From an uncultured Planctomycetota bacterium (GTDB taxonomy: Bacteria > Planctomycetota > Planctomycetia > Isosphaerales > Isosphaeraceae), in assembly GCA_963823665.1 (NCBI GenBank), contig CAWGMQ010000005.1, forward strand, positions 1,408,001 to 1,472,000: a stretch of DNA of 64,000 nucleotides. Reading direction: 5' to 3'. The notes below the pieces were generated by a model. That model was not told the DNA's origin, ran no database searches, and saw only the letters and a program-made list of their open reading frames with translations. Shown here in pieces: positions 1,682-42,175 of the stretch. Made by a program: the position numbers and the translations under genes. The first letter of the stretch is position 1; each line of letters begins with the position of its first letter.

Positions 1682-2068
1682 GTATAAATTCCTATCATAT
1701 GTGGCCTGGGGAGCTCGGCCCCTCGCTCGAGGGGCACGGCGTCGTTTTCCTGAGAAGCCAGACACCCACCCTCTGGAGTCAGTTTATTCGGATGCGAGGC
1801 GCACGTCACTCGCGCACCGGTCCGAACTCCGCGCTCGCTGTATCGCCGCGGCCGATGCCGCGCGTCATACGCGCCGTGGCACCACCGTGAACAAGCCTCT
1901 GCGCTTCGTCGCCGGCGCTTGCACCGTCGGTTGCTGGTAACCGCTCAGTATGGACAGCGGTACTTCGTCGCTTACCGCGCCGGCCACGGCAACGCCGCTA
2001 GCTGGCCTCAAGTCAACCGAGTCCTGCGTCTGGCACTGCGACCAGGGCTCAACGAGTAAGCGAGCAGC

Positions 2069-2290
2069 TTACTTACAAAAACGCAGCTTGCGCGGCAGCC
2101 TTCCCCTGAAACCACTGCCGCGAGCAACGTGGCGCCGTGCGCACGAGCGAAGTTGCTCGAGCTGCGGCCTGCTTGAACATGCGGCCAAACTCGCGCACCG
2201 TGTCGACCCAGTTCGATCGATCCACACCGAGCCGGTCCAAGATCGGAGCCAGGTCTTCAGCACGCCAGAATTGCAGCCTCATCAAGCAAG
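2069..2290 (-). pseudogene. C-terminal remnant of a RAYT/IS200-like (Y1 HUH) transposase
   Basis: LAPILDRLGVDRSNWVDTVREFGRMFKQAA...CSRQWFQGKAAAQAAFL resembles the C-terminal tail of REP-associated transposases. The 5' part is replaced by a repeat cluster. A near-identical segment lies at 36590-36665. Confidence 0.6.
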
Positions 2291-2425
2291 TGGATCCCAG
2301 ACACCCATCCTTTCGTGGATCCCGTACACCCACTCATTCGCGGCTTGCACGTTCAGCGCAATGTATTCCAGACACCCATCATTTCGTCATGGCCCCAGCA
2401 TCCACTCATTCGCAGCTCGCACGTT
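2291..2425. repeat. Cluster of four imperfect ~24-bp REP-like units
   Basis: ggatcccagacacccatcctttcg / tggatcccgtacacccactcattcg / tattccagacacccatcatttcg / tggccccagcatccactcattcg. The A-B-A-B pattern has a ~72-bp period. Confidence 0.7.
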
Positions 2426-2533
2426 CGATGCAAGACCACGGCCTCTGGTCATTTCGAAAACGCAGAACGCGGGTGCCCGACGCTCGACAAACGGTGAGTG
2501 TTCGACATCCCCGCAAGCGTCGGCCGTCGCGCC

Positions 2534-3008
2534 TCAGTCGCTTCGCGCGCGGCGGCCGACTCGGCGTTGCCGGCGCCGCAAGCGTTGAACGCCGCGCTCA
2601 TACTCAAGAAGGCGGGCAAGCGACGACCCGCCAGGCAAGCCTCGCAGCCCCAGGTAGAGCTCGTTCTGGACCATTTGCCAGTTCTCTCCAGGCGCTTCAA
2701 GAATCGGACCCGAGTGCGGCTTCGGCCATCCGCCGGTGCGCGCACGGTGTGCATCAGCCCACGCCAGGATATGTTCCACAGTGAAGGGAACAAGGCCCTG
2801 CACATTCCGCAATCCGCGCTCTTCAGCGAGCAAGCGAGCAATCGATGATCCGCCAGCAAGACCGCGCAAGCCAACGTAGAGAGCGTCATGAACGCTGTGC
2901 CATGTCTCGCCCGGTGCCTCAGGGATGGCGCCGGATCCGGGCTTCGGCCAGGTGCCGTGGCGGGCTTGGTGCGCGTCAGCCCATCGGAGTATTTCTTGAA
3001 TTCGAAAG
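2534..3008 (-). pseudogene. 5'-truncated planctomycete repeat protein (~72-aa ILxWADAH...GLRGLPGGSS repeats)
   Basis: The frame upstream of the listed ORF reads PFRIQEILRWADAHQARHGTWPKPGSGAIPEAPGETWHSVHDALYVGLRGLAGGSS, followed by a second copy. It ends abruptly at the repeat at 3009 with no start codon. Confidence 0.7.
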
Positions 3009-3060
3009 GGGGAGTGAAACCGGGACGCAACTAGGGGGAGTGAAACCGGGACGCAACTAG
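3009..3060 (+). repeat. Perfect tandem 2 x 26-bp REP-like motif GGGGAGTGAAACCGGGACGCAACTAG
   Basis: 3009-3034 and 3035-3060 are identical. Confidence 0.95.
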
Positions 3061-3266
3061 TTTAGACGTTCTACGGACACCACGCCGTATTCCTTGGCAA
3101 AATCAAATCCACACACTTCGCTCTCGAGACGGCGTTTCTTTTGCAGAACGTCTCGCTTCTTCGCCAGCGTATTTCGTTGATTCCTCTCGATCGGCAAAGC
3201 GCCTCCAGCCTGACGCGCCGATCACCTGCACAGTGCGACGGGCCTCTTCACGTTCGGGTTGTCGGA

Positions 3267-3645
3267 CTACCGGGACTGGCCCCTTCGCAGGCTCCACAGT
3301 CCGCGCCGAGAGGATGAAGGTGAAGCCCCCGAGCCCGCCGAGCGCCCAGAGTGTCCAGACGAAGAAAAAGCCGCCGGGGGATCTGGCGATCTCGCCGTAA
3401 TGTGCCCCCCTCATGTGGATGACGGGCGTGCCTGCCGCGAACAATCCGACGAGCAGCATGATGACGTGCCCCGATCGCCGCTCGGGGAGCACGAGCGTCC
3501 CGTACAGGAGGACCGCGAGGATGAGCAGCGCGATGTTTGAGCTCTCGGCCTCCGATATCCCACGGACGATGTCGTCCGTAATGTGAAGCGTCAGCAAGAG
3601 GATCGAGAGCAGAGACGCGATGGTTAACATGGTGTTGTGTTTCAT
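3267..3645 (-). CDS. Small ~4-TM membrane protein, one frameshift near the C-terminus
   Basis: AAGGAG RBS before MKHNTMLTIASLLSILL and four hydrophobic segments. A frame change at ~3300 gives ...SARGLWSLRRGQSR* (TAG 3267-3269). Confidence 0.7.
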
Positions 3646-3747
3646 TGGAAATTCTCCTTGTTGGATTTGTGCGTGCCTCATTGCCCTGCTGCCTTTGCCT
3701 GCTCCCTCCAGCGCTGCTCGTTCACACCAAACACCAGGAGCCACAGC

Positions 3748-3776
3748 GGGGAGGGAAACACGGACGCGATTAGTTT
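3748..3776 (+). repeat. REP-like motif GGGGAGGGAAACACGGACGCGATTAGTTT
   Basis: Variant of the 3009 motif, same orientation. Confidence 0.8.
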
Positions 3777-3833
3777 GTCTATGCTCCCTCGGCTAAACAA
3801 GGTGTCGGGAACCCTATTGTAAGTTCGAAGCCC

Positions 3834-3925
3834 TCACCGCGGGATCGACGCCACGGCCGCCGTACGCCGCGCCGGGCTGGCCTCGAGGGCGTCGAGCAAG
3901 ACGACGGCTGCCTCGGCGTCGGCGA
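3834..3925 (-). pseudogene. C-terminal gene fragment (LADAEAAVVLLDALEASPARRTAAVASIPR*)
   Basis: High-GC3 frame ending in TGA, cut at the left edge of the 3926 repeat. Parent family not recognised. Confidence 0.45.
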
Positions 3926-3971
3926 GGGGAATGAAACAGGGACGCGACGGGGAATGAAACAGGGACGCGAC
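3926..3971 (+). repeat. Perfect tandem 2 x 23-bp REP-like motif GGGGAATGAAACAGGGACGCGAC
   Basis: 3926-3948 and 3949-3971 are identical. Confidence 0.95.
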
Positions 3972-4267
3972 GAGTATTTCCAAGGACATCGAGAACGAGG
4001 AAAATCTGGTCGCCGATTTTTAGGCGACTGCCGGCCCGTCGAAGCTCCGCGCGAGGCTCGCCGAATGGAATGCTTCGCTCGATCCGCTCTTATCTTGAAG
4101 CAACTCCGACTCGGCTCGATCTCGCCGTTGTTCTCATTCGGGAAGCGCCCGAGATCGAGGCGTTCACGAAGGGCCACGCGGTTGCACACCACCGTTGAAA
4201 TCCGTGCAAAACACGCGAATTACCGAAACAGTAAGTGCCAGAGGCGTATGGTCTTCCGCTTCTTGGA

Positions 4268-4314
4268 CCATCCTCACACGGTGGAAGTCGCCGGTTCGAA
4301 GCCAGCGCCGCCCA
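4268..4314 (+). mobile_element. 3' half of tRNA-Val(CAC): att-site remnant
   Basis: Anticodon arm CCATC-CTCACAC-GGTGG, variable AAGTC, T-arm GCCGG-TTCGAAG-CCAGC, acceptor 3' strand GCCGCCCA. No D-arm or 5' acceptor strand. Confidence 0.8.
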
Positions 4315-4336
4315 TGAGAGTCCCGGCGAATTCGAA

Positions 4337-4708
4337 TCAAACGGGTTCAAGGTCCAGCACCACCCGCATGCCCAGTGCCGACGCCAAGGTTTCCATGGTC
4401 GCGATGGTCGGATTGAATTGCTTGCCCGTCTCCAGCTTCGACAGATTTGCACCCTTGATCCCGGTGCGCCGCTCCAGATCGCTTAGACTCAGACCTTGCC
4501 GCTCTCGCTCACGCCTGATCTTTGCGAGAAACTCCACAACGACCGGGGGCGCCTCCTTCGGTGGAAATTCCTCTTTGATCTCCTCGATTTCCTGGCCAAG
4601 TTTGGCCTGGTATTCGGGGGAGCGCCAGATGCGGCGGGCCTCATCGAGCTTCGCCTGTTCTTCGGGCGTCAGCGGCTTCCCTTTGGTTCGGTTAGATCGT
4701 TCGCTCAT
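4337..4708 (-). CDS. XRE-family HTH regulator/antitoxin (copy 1)
   Basis: IRRERERQGLSLSDLERRTGIKGANLSKLETGKQFNPTIATMETLASALG; GAGGAG RBS. Confidence 0.9.
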   Translation of the reverse strand: MSERSNRTKGKPLTPEEQAKLDEARRIWRSPEYQAKLGQEIEEIKEEFPPKEAPPVVVEFLAKIRRERERQGLSLSDLERRTGIKGANLSKLETGKQFNPTIATMETLASALGMRVVLDLEPV

Positions 4709-4719
4709 GGTCCCTCTCC

Positions 4720-4860
4720 TCAGTCCAATTCGCAGGCCGTTGCAGGCCGGATGATGTTAAACGACTTGTCACCCATCACGTCGTATCCCTTCTCGACGAA
4801 AAGTTCCGTGCGATCATCGACCCCGCCCCACCAAGCCCCGACGACCCAGTACTGAGTCAT
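4720..4860 (-). pseudogene. Short probably chimeric ORF upstream of the HTH gene
   Basis: MTQYWVVGAWWGGVDDRTELFVEKGY followed by DVMGDKSFNIIRPATACELD*. The tail resembles the end of BrnT/RelE-like toxins that precede XRE antitoxins. Confidence 0.35.
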
Positions 4861-5146
4861 GACCAATTCCCTTGAAGCGCGTGTTCTTATTGCAAGAGCC
4901 ACTCGATCATCGTGCGGTCCGAAGCGACCTGAACCTCGTCGTAATGGCTCGAGGCTCACCGCAACCGTGTCACACCCTCAGTCGAATGGCAAGTCACACA
5001 TAGCCGCTCGGCAACGCCAAGTTTTTCGTCGAGCGCACGATCCCGCCGCCGCACGCGGCGCACGCGCGGTCCGTCGCTCCGCCCATGATTATAGACGACT
5101 GGAATACGGTACAATGGGTTTGTTCGCTCTAAACAGAAAGGCACCC

Positions 5147-5497
5147 ATGACAACGTTGGATTTCGAACCCTTAAGCGTGGCTGTTCGTCTGCGCGAAGAC
5201 CCTCCCGGCGTGATCCGCGTCGGAAATAGCCACGTCCTTCTCGAATTGGTCCTCAACGCCTTCAAACGGGGAGAGTCTCCGGAGGGCATCGTCAGGTCTT
5301 ATCGGACACTGCAACTTGCCGACGTTTACGCGGTCGTCAGCCGTTACCTTGCTAATCCCGCCCCGTTCGACGAGTACCTTCGGCGATGTGACGAAGAAGC
5401 GGAAGCCATTCGACGCAAGATCGAAGCATCGCAGCGGCCAGGGCCAAGCAAGGAAGAATTGCTCGCTCGCGCCCGGGCGAAGGGACTGATCCCTTGA
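5147..5497 (+). CDS. DUF433-family antitoxin
   Basis: IRVGNSHVLLELVLNAFKRGESPEGIVRSYRTLQLADVYAVVSRYL. TACAAT -10 box at 5111 and AAAGG RBS. Confidence 0.85.
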   Translation: MTTLDFEPLSVAVRLREDPPGVIRVGNSHVLLELVLNAFKRGESPEGIVRSYRTLQLADVYAVVSRYLANPAPFDEYLRRCDEEAEAIRRKIEASQRPGPSKEELLARARAKGLIP

Positions 5498-5507
5498 TCG
5501 CGTTCCT

Positions 5508-5644
5508 GGGGAGCGAAACCGGGACGCAGCTAGATTCGCATGGAGTGAAACCGGGACGCAGCTAGACTCGGAGTTCCACGGACACCAAACCTGACTCTGT
5601 CGTTCCGAGTTCCGAGACTTGAGTTCCGGGGACACCATCCCTAA
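5508..5644 (+). repeat. REP-like cluster: 2 x GGAG(C/T)GAAACCGGGACGCAGCTAG plus 2 x GAGTTCCxxGGACACCA
   Basis: Copies at 5508-5533, 5542-5565, 5571-5587 and 5621-5637. A related ttctacggacacca lies at ~3069. Confidence 0.85.
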
Positions 5645-5769
5645 CGCCCCGCCTCAGTGCCCATCTTCACCCGGTCCGCGATCGCTCGGCATGCCGCAGG
5701 TACAGAGTGCGCCAGAAGCCGATCCATCGGACCGAGCACCGCCCATATCATCGATCCATTCGGGCCGAC

Positions 5770-6897
5770 TCAAACAGAAAGAATCTGTTCCAGAACCCAT
5801 TCATAAACACCGAGCAAGGCTTCCATCCGTCCTTCCTCCACCAGGGATTCCAGCGGGAAGGACGGCCTTCTGGCGATGCTATCTACCGGAAGGGAAATGC
5901 CTGGAATCGCATTGAGTCGATTCAACTTCTCAATCCGAAGCGCCTCTGCGCCAAAGGGCGGCCTTCTCAGGTAATGCTGGAAATGCGTCTCGAAGCTGCC
6001 GTACGTGTAAACTGCGAAGAGTGGGTAGTCGATCCCCTCGTGCTGAAAGACCGGGACGAATGAGCCGGATTGTGCGCCCGCCCCCCAGTCGATTCTGGGA
6101 ACCTTCGATCTGCACCAATCGAGAATTCTCCTCGCAACTGGCACAGCGTCCGGGTGCTTCGCCTGCAAATCGGCGAAAAAGGAGGCTTCGTCCCATTTCC
6201 GCCCGGAGCTCGCTCCAACCGACTTGATCCTCTGCGCGGTCGCCGTTTGACCGATCAGAATCGGCGCAAGTGTACGCAGCCCTTGACCGACGCACTGCCT
6301 GATCTCGATCGCTAGGACTTCCGCAGGGTTCATCTGGCCGTTGAGAAACTCAACAATCCGACGCAGGCCGGGGGGTATCTCATCAGCCACGAAGATCAGC
6401 CGGATTCGACCGGCTTGGAGGTTCGTTTGAACGGCCTGCCAGAAATCTTCCCGTCCGTCTTCCGTACCGAGGAAATCCGTTAGCCTCTCGTCGGGGTCGA
6501 GCCCCCGCTCGCCACACGTCCGTTCGTAACGACTCCGGATCTCCTCAACCCGCCAGAACGCCGCACCGTTCGCGGCGTAATCCAGCATCTGGCCAACGAC
6601 CTCCCGACGGATCTGAGTGTTCGCGCTTCTCTTGACCTCCACAAGTGTCGGCACTGCATCCTGGTCGACAAACAAATGATCAAGAGAACCGCGATCGGCA
6701 CCGTCATCGCCGGAAACGCGCATCTCCCTGCTGACCAGCAGCCAACGCCTCGGCTTCTCCGGATCGATTTGGTCACCGGCTAATAAGTTCGAATAGTCGG
6801 CCAGGAGCCGTTGCAACAGAGCTTCAGAGTCATAAGGCGTTTCGCGCATCTCGACCAGCGCGCCGTCCTCGTGTAGAACGAAAATGCTGCCCGGCAT
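5770..6897 (-). CDS. PD-(D/E)XK nuclease, NucS-like N-terminal domain
   Basis: SEALLQRLL...REM...LDHLFVDQDAVPTLVEVKR...REVVGQMLDYAA motif; GAGGAG RBS. Confidence 0.75.
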   Translation of the reverse strand: MPGSIFVLHEDGALVEMRETPYDSEALLQRLLADYSNLLAGDQIDPEKPRRWLLVSREMRVSGDDGADRGSLDHLFVDQDAVPTLVEVKRSANTQIRREVVGQMLDYAANGAAFWRVEEIRSRYERTCGERGLDPDERLTDFLGTEDGREDFWQAVQTNLQAGRIRLIFVADEIPPGLRRIVEFLNGQMNPAEVLAIEIRQCVGQGLRTLAPILIGQTATAQRIKSVGASSGRKWDEASFFADLQAKHPDAVPVARRILDWCRSKVPRIDWGAGAQSGSFVPVFQHEGIDYPLFAVYTYGSFETHFQHYLRRPPFGAEALRIEKLNRLNAIPGISLPVDSIARRPSFPLESLVEEGRMEALLGVYEWVLEQILSV

Positions 6898-7083
6898 GTT
6901 GCTGACTCCTCGAAATCAAGAAGGCAATTCGCGCGAGAAGTGCTGCCAGTATGAGCGCACGCGGCTCGCATGTAAAAGTGTGGGGTTTTCCCGACCGCCG
7001 CCGCTCGATGCCCTATTCGGCCCTTGACCGCGGTTTGTATTTGTCGCGAAAGTCCTCGACGCTCATCATGGGCTTGGTTCTGT

Positions 7084-7118
7084 GGAAAAGGTGTCAGGAA
7101 CCGAAAACGGTCTTCCCG
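7084..7118 (+). repeat. REP-like motif GGAAAAGGTGTCAGGAACCGAAAACGG
   Basis: Related to aaacaaggtgtcgggaaccc at ~3795. It abuts the HNH stop codon on its right and a C-terminal gene fragment on its left. Confidence 0.6.
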
Positions 7119-7553
7119 TCACACGTCACTTGGCGGATGCCAGCTCGCGAGCACCCAGTACGCTCGCACAATGAGCGCATCAGGATCGTCCGCAAGATGC
7201 AAAGCGGCAACAGTAGCACGCCCCGTCGGCGTCAGGCCCACCACCCGAATGCCGTCCGCGGACCAGCAAAAATGCTCGGACCAACGCTGAGTCCGCGGAT
7301 TGAACAGGGCCGTTTCAATGCCAGACTCGGGATCTCGTGCCGATGTCCGATCCGATTTAAAACGGTTGCAAAGCGGGCAACACAACCACAGGTTTGATTC
7401 CGTGCTGACGCCCCCTTTACCCTTGGGAATGATGTGCTCGATCTCCAGTCGCGCCATCACAAGTCGCTGCGGACTGAGACAGTAACCGCACCGATTCCCC
7501 GCGCTCGCACGAACGCGCCGTTCAACCTCCGGCGAAATCCAGTCACGCGGCAT
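7119..7553 (-). CDS. HNH endonuclease (copy 1)
   Basis: RCGYC...EIEHIIPKGKGG...NLWLCCPLCNRFKS, LFNPRTQRWSEHF, GLTPTGRATV. Start MPRDWIS overlaps the upstream stop. Confidence 0.9.
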   Translation of the reverse strand: MPRDWISPEVERRVRASAGNRCGYCLSPQRLVMARLEIEHIIPKGKGGVSTESNLWLCCPLCNRFKSDRTSARDPESGIETALFNPRTQRWSEHFCWSADGIRVVGLTPTGRATVAALHLADDPDALIVRAYWVLASWHPPSDV

Positions 7554-7935
7554 GATCAGCATCTGCCCCGGCAGCGTCCACCGACGCTCGAAGGCCGCGC
7601 GCCACTGCTTCCTTCCACGCGCGCGCCTTCTGCACCAACCCCCGTCGATAAACGACGATAAGCTCGTCAAGCCGCGCACGCTCCGATCCCGCCAGCTTGC
7701 CCTCTCGGGCATCCGATAGCAAACCGCTCAGCTCCGCCTGAAGATCGGCGCCGATCACCGCGTCGCAAAGGGCTAAGACATCGCCATCGGGCATACCCGC
7801 CATCTCTTGCTCCGCGACCGCCTGGCCAATCCAGTCGACCGCCGCATCCTCGAGCCGGCGATTGGAGGCTGCGGCCGCGCTACGCGCGCGCCGGGCAAGC
7901 TCGTCCGAAAGTTCCACTGTGAGTGATTGACCCAT
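7543..7935 (-). CDS. Small helical protein coupled to the HNH gene (putative antitoxin, RHH-like N-terminus)
   Basis: MGQSLTVELSDELARRAR...; LSGLLSDAREGKLAGSERARLDEL...KARA. Overlaps the HNH start by 11 bp. Confidence 0.7.
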   Translation of the reverse strand: MGQSLTVELSDELARRARSAAAASNRRLEDAAVDWIGQAVAEQEMAGMPDGDVLALCDAVIGADLQAELSGLLSDAREGKLAGSERARLDELIVVYRRGLVQKARAWKEAVARGLRASVDAAGADADHAA

Positions 7936-8100
7936 AAGCCCCACCTCGACAAGCTACCGCATCCGCCGGAGCTTCCCACGCCCTGCTCGCTCGGGCCGAC
8001 CGCCCAAACCTCCTGATGATCATACCATTTCGCCGATGCCCAGGCGAAGACCAACGCAAGCCCGATTCACCCCGCCAATGGATCTTCGTCCACGAGGTCA

Positions 8101-8367
8101 GACCCTCCACGGGGTCAGACCCAGTTTCAATTTAGTTCAGAATCCGGCCAACAACGGCAGCGTCGAGCCCAAATCGCGAAGCGTGTCCCCTACCCAAGAA
8201 ATTACAACCGAGCACACGCGTTGAGCCGGCCCGCCCGGATTGATATCCCGCTCATCCCGAAAGACAAGATCTTCAAACGGATAGCATTTGGTCCCGGCGA
8301 TTTTGGGAATTCCTGATCAGTCACCCCGGAGCAACCAGAAGTATGATCCGTGTTCGACCAGTATTTC
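8101..8367 (+). repeat. ~265-bp non-coding direct repeat, copy 1
   Basis: Aligns along its full length with 8871-9137; shared blocks include cgagcacacgcgttgagccgg, cccgctcatcccgaaagacaa, aacggatagcatttggtc and cagaagtatgatccgtgttcga. Confidence 0.9.
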
Positions 8368-8580
8368 GTGAGTCGCTTTGAAGCGACGTGTTCAGTGAAA
8401 TCGAGAAGCTCGCACGGGAGCTTCGGCCAAGATTGGAGCACGATGAACGACGTTCATCCGAAAAACGTCCAAAAACAACTGGCACAAACCACATCTGGCT
8501 CTCGAGAATGAAATGTGCCACGCGGACGTTCCGGCAAACAAGGTCTCTAACTGGAAAGCCTCACTCATGTGGAGATTAGC

Positions 8581-8799
8581 ATGACTCGTCTGGTTATTCA
8601 TTCGCGAGTCGGCGCGGATGGTGTTGTGCACATCACCGTACCGATAGGCAAAGAAGACGCCGATCGGGACGTACAAGTGACCATCGATCCGGCTCCGGTC
8701 GAGCCGCCCCCGATGACGGAGCAGGAGTGGCGGGCCTTCGTCCTGTCAACAGCCGGCTCTTGGGAGGGAGACCTCGAGCGACCCAAACAGGGAGAGTAG
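8581..8799 (+). CDS. Small antitoxin-like protein, possibly C-terminally clipped
   Basis: GGAG RBS. MTRLVIHSRVGADGVVHITVPIG...WRAFVLSTAGSWEGDLERPKQGE resembles antitoxins found upstream of VapC. No toxin follows. Confidence 0.65.
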   Translation: MTRLVIHSRVGADGVVHITVPIGKEDADRDVQVTIDPAPVEPPPMTEQEWRAFVLSTAGSWEGDLERPKQGE

Positions 8800-8870
8800 C
8801 TCTTCATCCCAAAGCGACCGGAAACGGCGGTTCAGCTCGTTTTTCATTCCAATACATTGCCCTTCCATCG

Positions 8871-9137
8871 GCCCTCCATTCGATCAGACCCAATTTCAGT
8901 CTGATTCAGACGCCGGCCAAGAACCGCAGCATCGAGCCCAAAGCACGAAGCGTCTCCCCTCCCAAACAAATTTCAAGCGAGCACACGCGTTGAGCCGGAC
9001 CGCCCGGATTGATACCCGCTCATCCCGAAAGACAATATCTTCGAACGGATAGCATTTGGTCTCGGCGATTTTGGAACGTCCTGATCAGTCAGGCACCCTG
9101 GAGCAATCAGAAGTATGATCCGTGTTCGATCAGCATT
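8871..9137 (+). repeat. ~265-bp non-coding direct repeat, copy 2
   Basis: See copy 1 at 8101-8367. Confidence 0.9.
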
Positions 9138-9462
9138 CCATCAGTGGCCAAGCTCTCCGACTGCTTTCCTCTTCGATTTCTTGATTGTCCCGCCCCTGTG
9201 GCTCCGATCCGTGCCCCGCAATCCAAACGTCCCCGAGACCGCCCGTCCGAACCATCCCTCAGGAATGTGAGCGCCCGTCACGGCGCGCCCTACGACTCGA
9301 AGCAGCCCTATCACAGCGAGCCGTTAGCCCCCGATGTGGACACGGACGCAAGAGATCGCCAACGGAGCGCGGGCAGTAGCCCGGGAGATGAGTATGATAG
9401 AGAGAGAAAGCGGCGCACGAATCCTTCAATAAAAACCTGGGCTGAACGCTGGAGTATGATCG

Positions 9463-9638
9463 ATGCCACGACCCAGAACAGAGACGAAACCACCCACCCG
9501 CACGAAACAGCCCGCCAGCACTAGAGCAATCCCAGGCGTCGAGGCCTCTCCGGTCCGTGCGCACGAGTGGCCCGAGGTGCTCACCCTGGCCGAGGCTGCC
9601 ACCTACCTGCGGGTCCCAGAACTTGAAGTGGTCCGCAT
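9463..9638 (+). pseudogene. 3'-truncated HTH_17 (excisionase-type) DNA-binding protein
   Basis: GGAG RBS. EVLTLAEAATYLRVPELEVVRM stops mid-domain where the REP-like motif begins. Confidence 0.75.
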
Positions 9639-9666
9639 GGGGAGGGAAACAGGGACGCGATGAGTT
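9639..9666 (+). repeat. REP-like motif GGGGAGGGAAACAGGGACGCGATGAGTT
   Basis: Variant of the 3009/3926/5508 motif, same orientation. Confidence 0.85.
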
Positions 9667-9811
9667 CGTCTATGAATCTAACCGCTGGATGGAATCCGCG
9701 TAATTAGCTTATTGCCTCGGTCGCCATCCCGCCGACGGATCGGTTCAGGAAAAATGGTGATTTCAGCCCCTGTTTTCTTTACAATGAAGGGTAATTACAC
9801 GATGTTCACGG

Positions 9812-11077
9812 ATGGGGGAATTGCCGTACGGGCGTCTCTCATTGCGGAGGTGGCATATGCTGGGCCTTGAGTATCTGTTGCTCTTTGGCGTCCCGGGCAA
9901 TAAATGGGAACTGATCGACGGCCGAATTCGCTGGGCATTCCCGTTTCTTGAGCGAGATGTTGCTGAATCGCACTTCGAGGCCTGGACGGAAACGCTCAGT
10001 CGCTGGCAAAACGCCGGCGCGCTCCAGGCTCACTCGACAACGACCGCCAACGGATCGCCCAAGCAGATCATCCAGTTCAACGGCATCGAGATGGGGCTCT
10101 ATCCAAAGCCGATCGAGTTGCGAATGCCCGTGGACTCCGAGGTCTTTGATGCCCTGTACCCTTCATTCTGGTGCCGCGATCTCTGGCCGGGCCAGAATCC
10201 CGGCTGCGAGACCGGATGGGAATGGTCTCAACGACATCATGATGTGCAGCTCAACCTCTGGAAGCTTTTCAGAGAGTTCTGTCACGTTTACGGAGGCAAG
10301 CAAAGCGGCCGCGTGGCAATCGCGCTCGATGACCGAAACGCCGTCGAGCCGGACCAATACTACTTTGCCTCGCCACGCAGCGAATGCATGATTGAGAACG
10401 ACTACTTCCAAGGTGTTCCACCACTGATCGCCGAGGTATTTTCCCCGGCGGGCCGAGCACTCGACGAAGGCGAGCGCATGCAAGTCTACCGGCGGGCCGG
10501 CGTCCGTCACTTGTCGCTACTCGATCCTGAGGCAGAGACGATCGATGAATACACGCTGGACAAAGGGGCGTATTCCAAGACGGGACGATATCAAGCAGGA
10601 GAAAGCTTCCAGCCGGTCGCGTTTCCCAAGGAATCTGTCGCGGTGGACGCACTCTTCGATACTCAAGAAAAGCGTCACGGTTTCTCGCGGTCAGAGACGG
10701 ACCTGGAGCCGGTGCCGCCATGGTTGATTTCCCCCGAGAAACGGGTCGGGCTCGAGGCATTGTTTTTCTTCGGCCATCCCGAGCGCCGCTACGAGATCTG
10801 GAACAACCGTGCACCGTGCATGTTAGCTTTTGGTTCCGTTGAAGAGGCGCAGGTGCGATTCCGGCATTTCCTCGACGAGATCTGCCGGTGGGAACAAATG
10901 GCGCTGGCCGAGCCGAGCTCGATCGAGCCCGGCATCGATATCGCCGAGGTTGGGCGCTTTCGGCTCATTCGACGCGGGACGCTCGTCCGGTTAGACGTCG
11001 CAATCGACGCCCGAAACTACCGCGAACTCTTGCGCGTCTGGAGCAAGCGGGAGGCATGGGATTGGGGCGAAGAATGA
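9812..11077 (+). CDS. Uma2-family endonuclease with duplicated flanking domains
   Basis: Central AVEPDQYY...PPLIAEVFSPAGRALD...YRRAGVRHLSLLDPE. The N- and C-terminal segments resemble each other. Confidence 0.8.
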   Translation: MGELPYGRLSLRRWHMLGLEYLLLFGVPGNKWELIDGRIRWAFPFLERDVAESHFEAWTETLSRWQNAGALQAHSTTTANGSPKQIIQFNGIEMGLYPKPIELRMPVDSEVFDALYPSFWCRDLWPGQNPGCETGWEWSQRHHDVQLNLWKLFREFCHVYGGKQSGRVAIALDDRNAVEPDQYYFASPRSECMIENDYFQGVPPLIAEVFSPAGRALDEGERMQVYRRAGVRHLSLLDPEAETIDEYTLDKGAYSKTGRYQAGESFQPVAFPKESVAVDALFDTQEKRHGFSRSETDLEPVPPWLISPEKRVGLEALFFFGHPERRYEIWNNRAPCMLAFGSVEEAQVRFRHFLDEICRWEQMALAEPSSIEPGIDIAEVGRFRLIRRGTLVRLDVAIDARNYRELLRVWSKREAWDWGEE

Positions 11078-41582: not shown

Positions 41583-41625
41583 ATGTTGGCACTGTTGTGA
41601 CATACTATAATGGAGTGAGGAGAGG
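41583..41625 (+). promoter_or_regulatory. Sigma-70-like promoter and RBS for HTH copy 2
   Basis: Perfect TATAAT at 41606-41611, then GAGGAG before ATG 41630; weak -35. Confidence 0.55.
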
Positions 41626-41629
41626 GACC

Positions 41630-42001
41630 ATGAGCGAACGACCCAACCGAACCAAACGCAAGCCGCTGACGCCCGAAGAACAGGGGAAGCTCGATGAGCC
41701 CCGCCGCACCTGGCGCTCCCCCGAATACCAGGCCAAGCTTGGCCAGGACATCGAGAAGATCAGAGAGGAGTTTCCACCAAAGGAAGCGCCCCCAGTCGTT
41801 GTGGAGTTTCTCGCAAAGATCAGGCGTGAGCGAGAGCGACAAGGTCTGAGTCTGAGCGATCTGGAGCGGCGCACCGGGATCAAGAGTGCAAATCTGTCGA
41901 AGCTAGAGACGGGCAAGCATTTCAATCCGACCATCGCGACCATGGAGACGTTGGCGTCGGCATTGGGCATGCGTGTTGTGCTCGACCTCGAACACGCTTG
42001 A
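41630..42001 (+). CDS. XRE-family HTH regulator/antitoxin (copy 2)
   Basis: 123 aa, 12 substitutions relative to 4337-4708. Confidence 0.9.
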   Translation: MSERPNRTKRKPLTPEEQGKLDEPRRTWRSPEYQAKLGQDIEKIREEFPPKEAPPVVVEFLAKIRRERERQGLSLSDLERRTGIKSANLSKLETGKHFNPTIATMETLASALGMRVVLDLEHA

Positions 42002-42023
42002 CCGCAATTCGGCACGACTCTCA

Positions 42024-42070
42024 TAGGCGGCGCTCGAATCGAAACCGCGACTTCCACCGTGTGAGGATGG
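42024..42070 (-). mobile_element. 3' half of tRNA-Val(CAC): att-site remnant, copy 2
   Basis: Reverse complement is CCATCCTCACACGGTGGAAGTCGCGGTTTCGATTCGAGCGCCGCCTA; T-arm more decayed than in copy 1. Confidence 0.75.
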
Positions 42071-42175
42071 CCGAGAAGCGAAGATTTCAGGAAAATAACG
42101 ACTTACGTTTTTCAAGAATCGCAAGATTCACACCGATTTCAAGGTCAGCGTGCAGCGAAGCGTGCAGACCCGTTA

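Follow-up and report, generated by a model that had tools for sequence, protein, structure and literature searches.

Terminal inverted repeats of a TIRtron mark one-sided breakpoints in a planctomycete accessory gene array

TIRtrons are described as Y1 transposase genes (TIRYT) flanked by terminal inverted repeats (TIRs) that are unrelated to repetitive extragenic palindromes (REPs) (Di Nocera et al. 2013, PMC3733652). In the published passages, their families are moderately abundant, occur single, paired or clustered, and number several per genome (PMC3733652; 10.1101/279083), and a GGGGWSAS motif is found in the majority of TIRs, not in all (PMC3733652). The enzymes have been equated with TnpA-Y1 subclass 2.1 (Quentin et al., 10.1101/279083), the second largest Y1 HUH group, present in 14.9% of strains, to which the passages of that study give no substrate, cut site or role (10.1101/279083). 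Here, we report on a dispersed repeat, TIR-A, in a 64,000-nt stretch of DNA from an uncultured Planctomycetota bacterium of the Isosphaeraceae (contig CAWGMQ010000005.1, positions 1,408,001–1,472,000; hereafter the window), where the original prediction had placed co-oriented REP-like motifs at the breakpoints of captured gene fragments. The repeat is a TIR of a TIRtron, i.e. of a Y1/HUH transposase flanked by TIRs, and several genes are cut against its outer edge. We consider it fairly likely that the TIRtron enzyme nicks the outer edge of a single TIR and joins it to a same-strand site cut at a G.

HUH enzymes make a single-strand cut in which the 5′ end becomes attached to a tyrosine before it is rejoined to a 3′ end. 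In the published account of TnpA-REP, the second site needs only C|T and can lie >400 nt from the binding site, and both excision–integration and nick–extend–rejoin models have been drawn (Ton-Hoang et al., PMC3333891). The genome that contains the window (G000) is 16.5 Mb long and 92% complete, and a genome of the same genus (G001) served for comparison. TIR-A occurs in the window as seven exact copies (3009, 3035, 3748, 3926, 3949, 5508 and 9639) and an eighth with two mismatches (5540). All eight lie on the + strand, as predicted, but the second copy of the 5508 locus begins at 5540 and not at 5542. Shuffled windows held a mean of 0.72 copies and never reached eight. The genome scan proposed as a check returned 44 matches at ≤1 mismatch (reversed control, 0), and a wider pattern, GGAVNGAAACNNGGACGC, has 55 exact copies in G000 and 36 in G001 (reversed controls, 0). 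A full end is ~27 nt long and consists of a G run, then GGAnnGAAACnnGGACGC, then a tail closing with TAG; its core is (G)GGGACGC, and the base preceding the G run shows no preference (T 25, A 24, C 24). The label 'REP-like' fails, since TIR-A copies do not form a hairpin: the five that were folded reached only 0 to −2.1 kcal/mol on both strands. A REP hairpin identity was rejected because the motif is non-palindromic and has no stable fold; as a non-palindromic TIR it is therefore closest to a TIRtron, not a REPtron. TIR-A may be among the TIRs in Figure 9 or the supplements of PMC3733652.

A Y1/HUH enzyme linked to the motif was part of the same proposal and was found. G000 has 11 Y1 transposase matches (PF01797 over cut-off), all outside the window. 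An intact 231-aa Y1 gene (L037) begins directly inside a TIR-A copy, a Y1 element (L040) has inverted TIR-A at both ends, and five further loci (L270, L182, L274, L276 and L279) also have inverted repeats at both gene ends. TIR-A tracks the enzyme clade. By regular expression it stands at the left end in 9 of the 11 homologues of ≥59% identity that could be parsed, and partial copies were seen by eye in two more; none of the 14 homologues of ≤52% identity has it there, and these carry other ends (27 of 30 loci given, 2 unparsed). Close cognates occur in 10 of 61 genomes; TIR-A is present in all 10, with at least five copies in seven (kin are not independent), and in 3 of the 51 genomes without one.

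In the cognate enzyme family, the HUH histidines (H61/H63) and the tyrosine (Y123) are nearly invariant. The best structure match is E. coli TnpA-REP (4er8), both by profile (E 2e-7) and by predicted fold (E 1e-5, at a mean pLDDT model confidence of 68); a single-sequence search against solved structures gave no match, whereas the profile search did. The Y1 core is followed by ~90 conserved residues, modelled as helical at low confidence. No HTH family was matched in L032 or L035, two Y1 genes whose ends also occur in the window. Against the REP-transposase family NF047646 the cognate enzyme scored 46.5 bits, below the cut-off of 80. GGGGWSAS is not matched exactly by TIR-A but is matched by the ends of three other Y1 genes (L033, L036 and L039). 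The cognate element probably belongs to TnpA-Y1 subclass 2.1.

Four genes had been predicted to be cut directly 5′ of GGGGA, and comparison with uninterrupted homologues confirmed this at 3008, 5507 and 9638. At 9638, the orthologous G001 locus has a whole 130-aa HTH_17 gene followed by a VapC-like/PIN gene, four more genes and then the matching TIR; 3,390 bp, from inside the HTH_17 gene up to the TIR edge, are missing from the window. This comparison shows a 3.4-kb deletion ending on the TIR, in agreement with the one-ended events that had been proposed, although the end is a TIR and not a REP. At 5507, four relatives carry a 116-aa gene that starts like the five codons left in the window, and one of them is a DUF5615 gene. 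Among 16 loci examined, four have a 116-aa DUF5615-type gene behind DUF433, and in most of the rest this gene is variously disrupted. G001 is cut at the same G, but without a TIR, which fits later TIR excision, although another cause is possible. In many relatives (L250, L252, L253, L254, L264 and L268) the DUF5615-type gene breaks off within the first few codons, in several cases beside a similar short motif, possibly an end of another element. At 3008, repeat proteins of 267–524 aa align (~68–70%) to 12–13 nt from the edge and read on; this junction is placed less exactly than the other breakpoints. The DNA break at 3925 is real, because the G001 homologue continues without the motif, but its status as a gene is not clear from three copies, which give no clear sign of coding. 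The TIR-A copy at 3748 has no visible gene cut, and the piece at 7013–7083 had no homologue in the five genomes searched. At 2290, two G001 copies of the transposase continue past the cut, so the predicted cut of a transposase remnant is real, but the cluster at 2291 consists of ends of another Y1 element and not of TIR-A.

Misassembly at repeats in this long-read metagenome assembly is very unlikely to explain the junctions and tandem copies. Some genes of the assembly do have frameshifts, and no public contig among the matches listed bridges 3925, 5507, 7083 or 9638. However, a public soil-run contig (2948–3154) spans 3008–3060 including the tandem copy with 0 differences, and others span 3748 (3662–3928, 1 difference) and 9725 (9644–9850, 0 differences), while 2291 is overrun by only ~21 nt; the soil runs may include the source sample. 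Four other genomes show the same edge and the same G rule (see below), and the copied modules have diverged by 4–8%, which is not expected from collapse.

The edges were then examined genome-wide, using ~1.5 Mb of loci surrounding TIRs from G000 and G001. Outer-flank alignments end 0–9 nt from the edge at 20 of 97 TIR-A loci, compared with a background of 1.9 per bin (maximum 5), which bears out the predicted breakpoint enrichment at the 5′ edge of the motif. The only alignments that cross the TIR-A edge are three duplicated pairs carrying the TIR. With all families pooled, an outer TIR edge marks the end of 103 among 331 repeated segments, versus 14.5 in shifted controls, and 11 segments have both ends at TIR edges, versus 0. 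Solo ends within 5 kb of each other face the same direction in 86 of 114 cases and opposite directions in 28. The predicted enrichment of truncated coding sequences on the 5′ side was not seen: strongly coding outer flanks made up 21 of 109 (19%), compared with 54% of random positions (inner flanks were lower still, 4 of 109), in a test that requires 150 open, well-scoring bases and that short or atypical cuts such as 5507 escape. As outer flanks are less coding than random positions, gene cutting is a by-product or has been purged.

The second side of the joins also has a rule. At 12 of 13 unique clean TIR-A junctions, the uninterrupted sequence has a G where the TIR-A G run starts (null 0.52; P = 0.003). 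Tandem TIR copies start from the outer edge and are truncated internally, after 11–80 nt; of 28 such partial copies, 27 end where the template has a G (null 17.3; P = 1.5e-5; 19 of 20 per locus). The same was true of 31 of 35 copies in three other genera, whose loci were retrieved later to test the rule (null 20.0; P = 5.5e-5; 13 of 14 per locus). An early idea, that a TIR joins any free 3′ end, was dropped when the G preference appeared. A G on one strand is a C on the other, and the preference alone fixes no cut strand. The other half of the target was found behind an inverted TIR at 0 of 16 TIR-A junctions, and downstream as a direct duplication at 3 of 16.

Ordinary two-ended transposition, with the repeats later acted on by host recombination, slippage and microhomology repair, is an unlikely source of the fragments and tandem copies. 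Whole elements with paired TIRs exist, a 1.8-kb element is multi-copy and 86 of 300 TIR loci are paired; moreover, the joins share 1–3 G, which amounts to microhomology. Nevertheless, overlaps of 1–3 nt are too short for homologous recombination, the breaks lie on the outer edge only, and in two places one TIR family replaces another at a single-nucleotide position. Nor did the paired elements, including a paired mini-element at C5:9288/9565, reveal an empty site, a target duplication or the other target half.

Since the fixed outer edge is joined to cut genes nearly always at G, the enzyme probably handles each end separately when it cuts and rejoins DNA. The scheme that we favour would need a fixed nick at the TIR outer edge and a loose second cut at G on the same strand, and would give four kinds of product. 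A second site outside the TIR would cause an adjacent deletion that truncates the neighbouring gene (as at 9638). Nicking, polymerase extension, a second cut at G and rejoining would leave edge-anchored partial tandem copies (as at 3009 and 3926). A second site inside or at the next TIR would release a TIR-led single-strand circle that could re-enter at another TIR edge, a route to which we would assign an 874-bp block and the copies of 3951–4656 and 5542–6058 (described below). Finally, same-strand exchange would keep the ends in one direction and build arrays in dispensable DNA. The identity of the repeat, its link to an enzyme clade, the one-sided breakpoints, the G preference and the copied modules are seen directly in the sequences, and the enzyme likely deletes, copies and shuffles accessory gene blocks.

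Several points weigh against the one-ended scheme. Two of the 16 TIR-A junctions were dropped as unclear, the test in three genera skipped 23 neighbouring pairs of <85% identity, and the G rule is not significant for another family, TIR-E (13 of 25; null 11.0). Among 41 junctions of all families, 15 lose homology 1–8 nt before the edge. The fetched loci were chosen around TIRs, and many of the 103 edge-ending segments are element copies, in pairs that are not independent. The C8 copy of the 3951–4656 module stops 20 nt short of the next TIR, at a partial inverted TIR. The intact cognate enzyme may now be inactive, because it reads Y---SP where the class signature is Y---NP and its right TIR is lost. 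Lastly, we infer catalysis by the enzyme, the single-strand substrate, the circles and the choice of cut strand.

The array in the window combines ends of five Y1 families, and its features are as follows.
1751–2290, − strand: right end (TIR-E at 1752–1768) and last ~71 codons (2073–2290) of the 420-aa Y1 gene of the 1.8-kb element, cut at 2290 (from intact copies and G001 copies).
2291–2361, + strand: two partial tandem TIR-E copies (2291, 2316), anchored at the outer edge (from the sequence; repeat family D6).
2362–2512, + strand: ~148-bp miniature between TIR-E ends, the right one degenerate (44 other copies begin at this edge in fetched loci).
2534–3007, − strand: 3′ part of a WADAH-repeat gene that lacks its 5′ part from the TIR edge on (G001 and G021 have longer homologues; no Pfam family).
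3008–3060, + strand: TIR-A twice, a 26-nt partial copy and then a full end (motif search; public contig, 0 differences).
3103–3645, − strand: complete gene for a 180-aa hydrophobic protein, cargo (no Pfam, NCBIfam or PADLOC family).
3748–3775, + strand: TIR-A of right-end type, followed at 3797–3813 by a degenerate TIR-B-like motif (motif search).
3784–3925, no strand assigned: short segment ending at the 3926 TIR (the G001 homologue runs on without a TIR).
3926–3975, + strand: TIR-A twice, a 23-nt partial copy and then a full end (motif search).
3951–4656, + strand: TIR-A-led module that includes a tRNA-like piece and the greater part of an HTH_3 gene (4337–4708, − strand) (96% copy at G000:C8:467342-466637).
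5147–5508, + strand: DUF433 gene (5147–5497) followed by the five initial codons of its DUF5615-type partner, which breaks off at a G common to the TIR (relatives' genes).
5508–5566, + strand: TIR-A twice (5508, 5540) (motif search).
5542–6058, + strand: TIR-A-led module with TIR-D inside at 5620–5637 (92% copy at G000:C5:1401106-1401623).
5770–6897, − strand: complete 375-aa gene with a partial profile match to the candidate defence family PDC-S11 (E 5e-13, residues 12–245).
7013–7083, − strand: possible gene fragment adjoining TIR-B (no homologue, as above).
7084–7935, + strand: TIR-B (7084–7102; belonging to a second Y1 family, of ~229 aa) at the head of a module that contains an HNH gene (7119–7553, − strand) and its partner (7543–7935, − strand) (nine copies begin at 7084).
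8093–8135, + strand: TIR-G at 8111 with a partial copy at 8094 (from the ends of L038; 8120–9104 is absent from the orthologous G001 locus).
9463–9638, + strand: 5′ part of the HTH_17 gene (remainder deleted relative to G001).
9639–9750, + strand: TIRtron with an internal deletion, in which a TIR-A right end and the final codons of the cognate transposase gene (− strand, up to 9725) abut a short remnant of the 5′ part of that gene.

The 7084 motif had been taken as a relative of the main motif, but it is the end of another Y1 family: TIR-B is of the L032 type and flanks the intact L032 gene on both sides. Likewise, the 5620 motif is TIR-D (L035 type), the 8111 motif is TIR-G (L038 type), and the motifs at 1752, 2291 and 2362 are TIR-E, i.e. 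the ends of the 1.8-kb element and of its 148-bp miniature. The 14 TIR hits catalogued between 1750 and 9660 all face one way; the degenerate right end of the miniature faces back against them. Two other loci carry complete copies of the 1.8-kb element, in which inverted TIR-E ends enclose an uninterrupted 420-aa frame. This multi-copy element (L060, L051 and L173) has its Y1 enzyme in a classical layout like that of an insertion sequence (IS), as well as a high-copy miniature. An early 'class 3' label for the 420-aa enzyme was dropped, because the class 2 signature Y---NP is present; it was not placed on a tree. At G000:C6:920055-920935 (L129), C11:551310-552190 (L136) and in further copies, an insert of ~760 bp (93–99% identical) lies inside the right TIR-E of the 148-bp miniature; its ends resemble those of an open-reading-frame-less group II intron.

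Elsewhere, two loci (L348, G064:C3:3912662-3913265, and L345) have long nested TIR-A arrays with periods of 51–104 bp that could pass for CRISPR arrays. At L041 (G000:C10:188500-190050), a Y1 gene lies directly behind a CRISPR-like repeat–spacer array, with TIR-A after the gene. An IS200-type Y1 gene (L031, G000:C5:1391538-1393400), ~15 kb upstream of the window, follows a long tandem array of ~70-bp hairpin repeats.

WADAH-repeat proteins (2534–3007; L205, L234 and L235) consist of ~73-aa units, reach 524 aa and match no Pfam, NCBIfam or PADLOC family. The window has no whole tRNA gene. A tRNA-like 3′ piece at ~4268–4315, matched in many genomes, precedes the HTH gene and occurs again at ~42000 (− strand). 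The segment 4252–4727 has a 90% inverted copy at 41611–42084. This could be the remnant of an attachment site. None of the listed public runs with matching pieces was an RNA dataset.

Modules that start at a TIR were found again elsewhere. The 3951–4656 module recurs from its TIR on C8, and the 5542–6058 module has a copy on C5, ~7 kb upstream of the window, that ends on a G adjoining another TIR-A. Position 7084 is the exact start of nine other module copies in the fetched loci. An 874-bp block carrying DUF4258 and DUF2283 genes (toxin–antitoxin) is 99.7% identical on two contigs. Both copies begin at TIR-A and finish at the same end base, which is followed by TIR-E in one and by TIR-A in the other; a second cross-family end swap of this kind lies in G001. 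Cargo in the modules includes HNH, PIN, GNAT-TacA, AbiEii, Gp49-HTH and PDC-S11-like genes, and also catalase, kinase, esterase, TPR and oxidoreductase genes. These genes lie on both strands, and several are truncated.

An integron-like array without integrase or attC sites had been proposed. In the 92% complete genome, 18 TIGR02249 matches were found, none over the cut-off for an integron integrase, and 1700–10000 had 0 matches to a crude attC core-site pattern (no covariance model used), in line with that part of the proposal. The array itself was not borne out as integron-like, because orientation is mixed, most edges lie outside strongly coding sequence and nothing indicates ordered, expressed or selected capture; most of the fragments look like the result of deletion damage and not like captured cassettes. 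An adaptive analogue of the integron, in which TIR edges are dedicated attachment sites and the host collects and reorders defence and toxin–antitoxin cassettes, would suit the 874-bp block, which is TIR-bounded at both ends at both loci, the one-directional TIR hits and the defence-type cargo. We judge it improbable: the cargo is on both strands and often cut, includes the catalase, kinase and other genes listed above, and has no common promoter or order that we could find; none of the 11 Y1 matches is in the window, and few non-element blocks have TIRs at both ends. A wider form of the one-ended scheme, which we regard as doubtful, would make TIRtrons the HUH counterpart of the integron: any TIR edge would act as an attachment site, ends would be exchanged across families, G-cut TIR-led circles would move toxin–antitoxin and defence modules, and hosts would keep the enzymes for turnover.

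Integrons have same-direction sites between accessory blocks rich in toxin–antitoxin genes. The present array differs in having no IntI over cut-off, no attC-like match, both cargo orientations and cuts at random codons. In IS91/ISCR elements, one fixed end mobilises variable lengths of adjacent DNA, with large Y2/Y1 rolling-circle enzymes and oriIS/terIS; here, the enzyme is a ~230-aa Y1 protein (PF01797), the ends are alike and outside DNA is often deleted. The IS200/IS605 family (IS608, ISDra2) shares HUH/Y1 chemistry, strand-specific exchange and the lack of target duplication (PMC3333891). Those elements, however, have two different subterminal hairpins on one strand, precise excision and no TIRs, whereas here the ends are inverted and alike and form no hairpin. 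The E. coli REPtron and its bacterial interspersed mosaic elements (BIMEs) have the same enzyme fold and a low-specificity second cut, and the models drawn for them predict the products seen here. REPs, in contrast, are hairpins with a GTAG foot whose products are BIME arrays, while the present system has no hairpin, prefers a single G (C on the other strand) and yields gene-size products.

Enzymes of the same subclass are known beside prochlorosin genes, where TnpA-REP subclass 2.1 genes, whole and as C-terminal fragments, lie among variable genes (Laurenceau et al., 10.1101/2020.03.09.984088). That study suggested a part in diversification; an authors' note withdraws a causal claim, and the published passages give no end sequence or junction rule (10.1101/2020.03.09.984088). 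The TIRtron itself is matched in its Y1 gene with a probable C-terminal extension, its REP-unrelated inverted repeats and its dispersed TIRs, which are moderately abundant, stand singly, in pairs or in clusters and form several families in one genome. The published passages on TIRtrons are anatomical and contain no cleavage site, cargo or rearrangement (PMC3733652, 10.1101/279083), and our literature search, with most subscription journals outside its coverage, found no cut site, junction rule or cargo movement for them. The locus family yields a rule that can be tested: the join is fixed at the outer edge of the TIR, a single base is preferred at the second site, and each end acts alone. If true, the scheme would describe a general engine to delete, duplicate and move accessory genes without an integrase, driven by a small enzyme that joins DNA and demands almost nothing of its target. 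The element is thus a member of a described kind, the TIRtron, to which the present analysis adds a one-sided breakpoint count, a replicated G rule and cross-family exchange.

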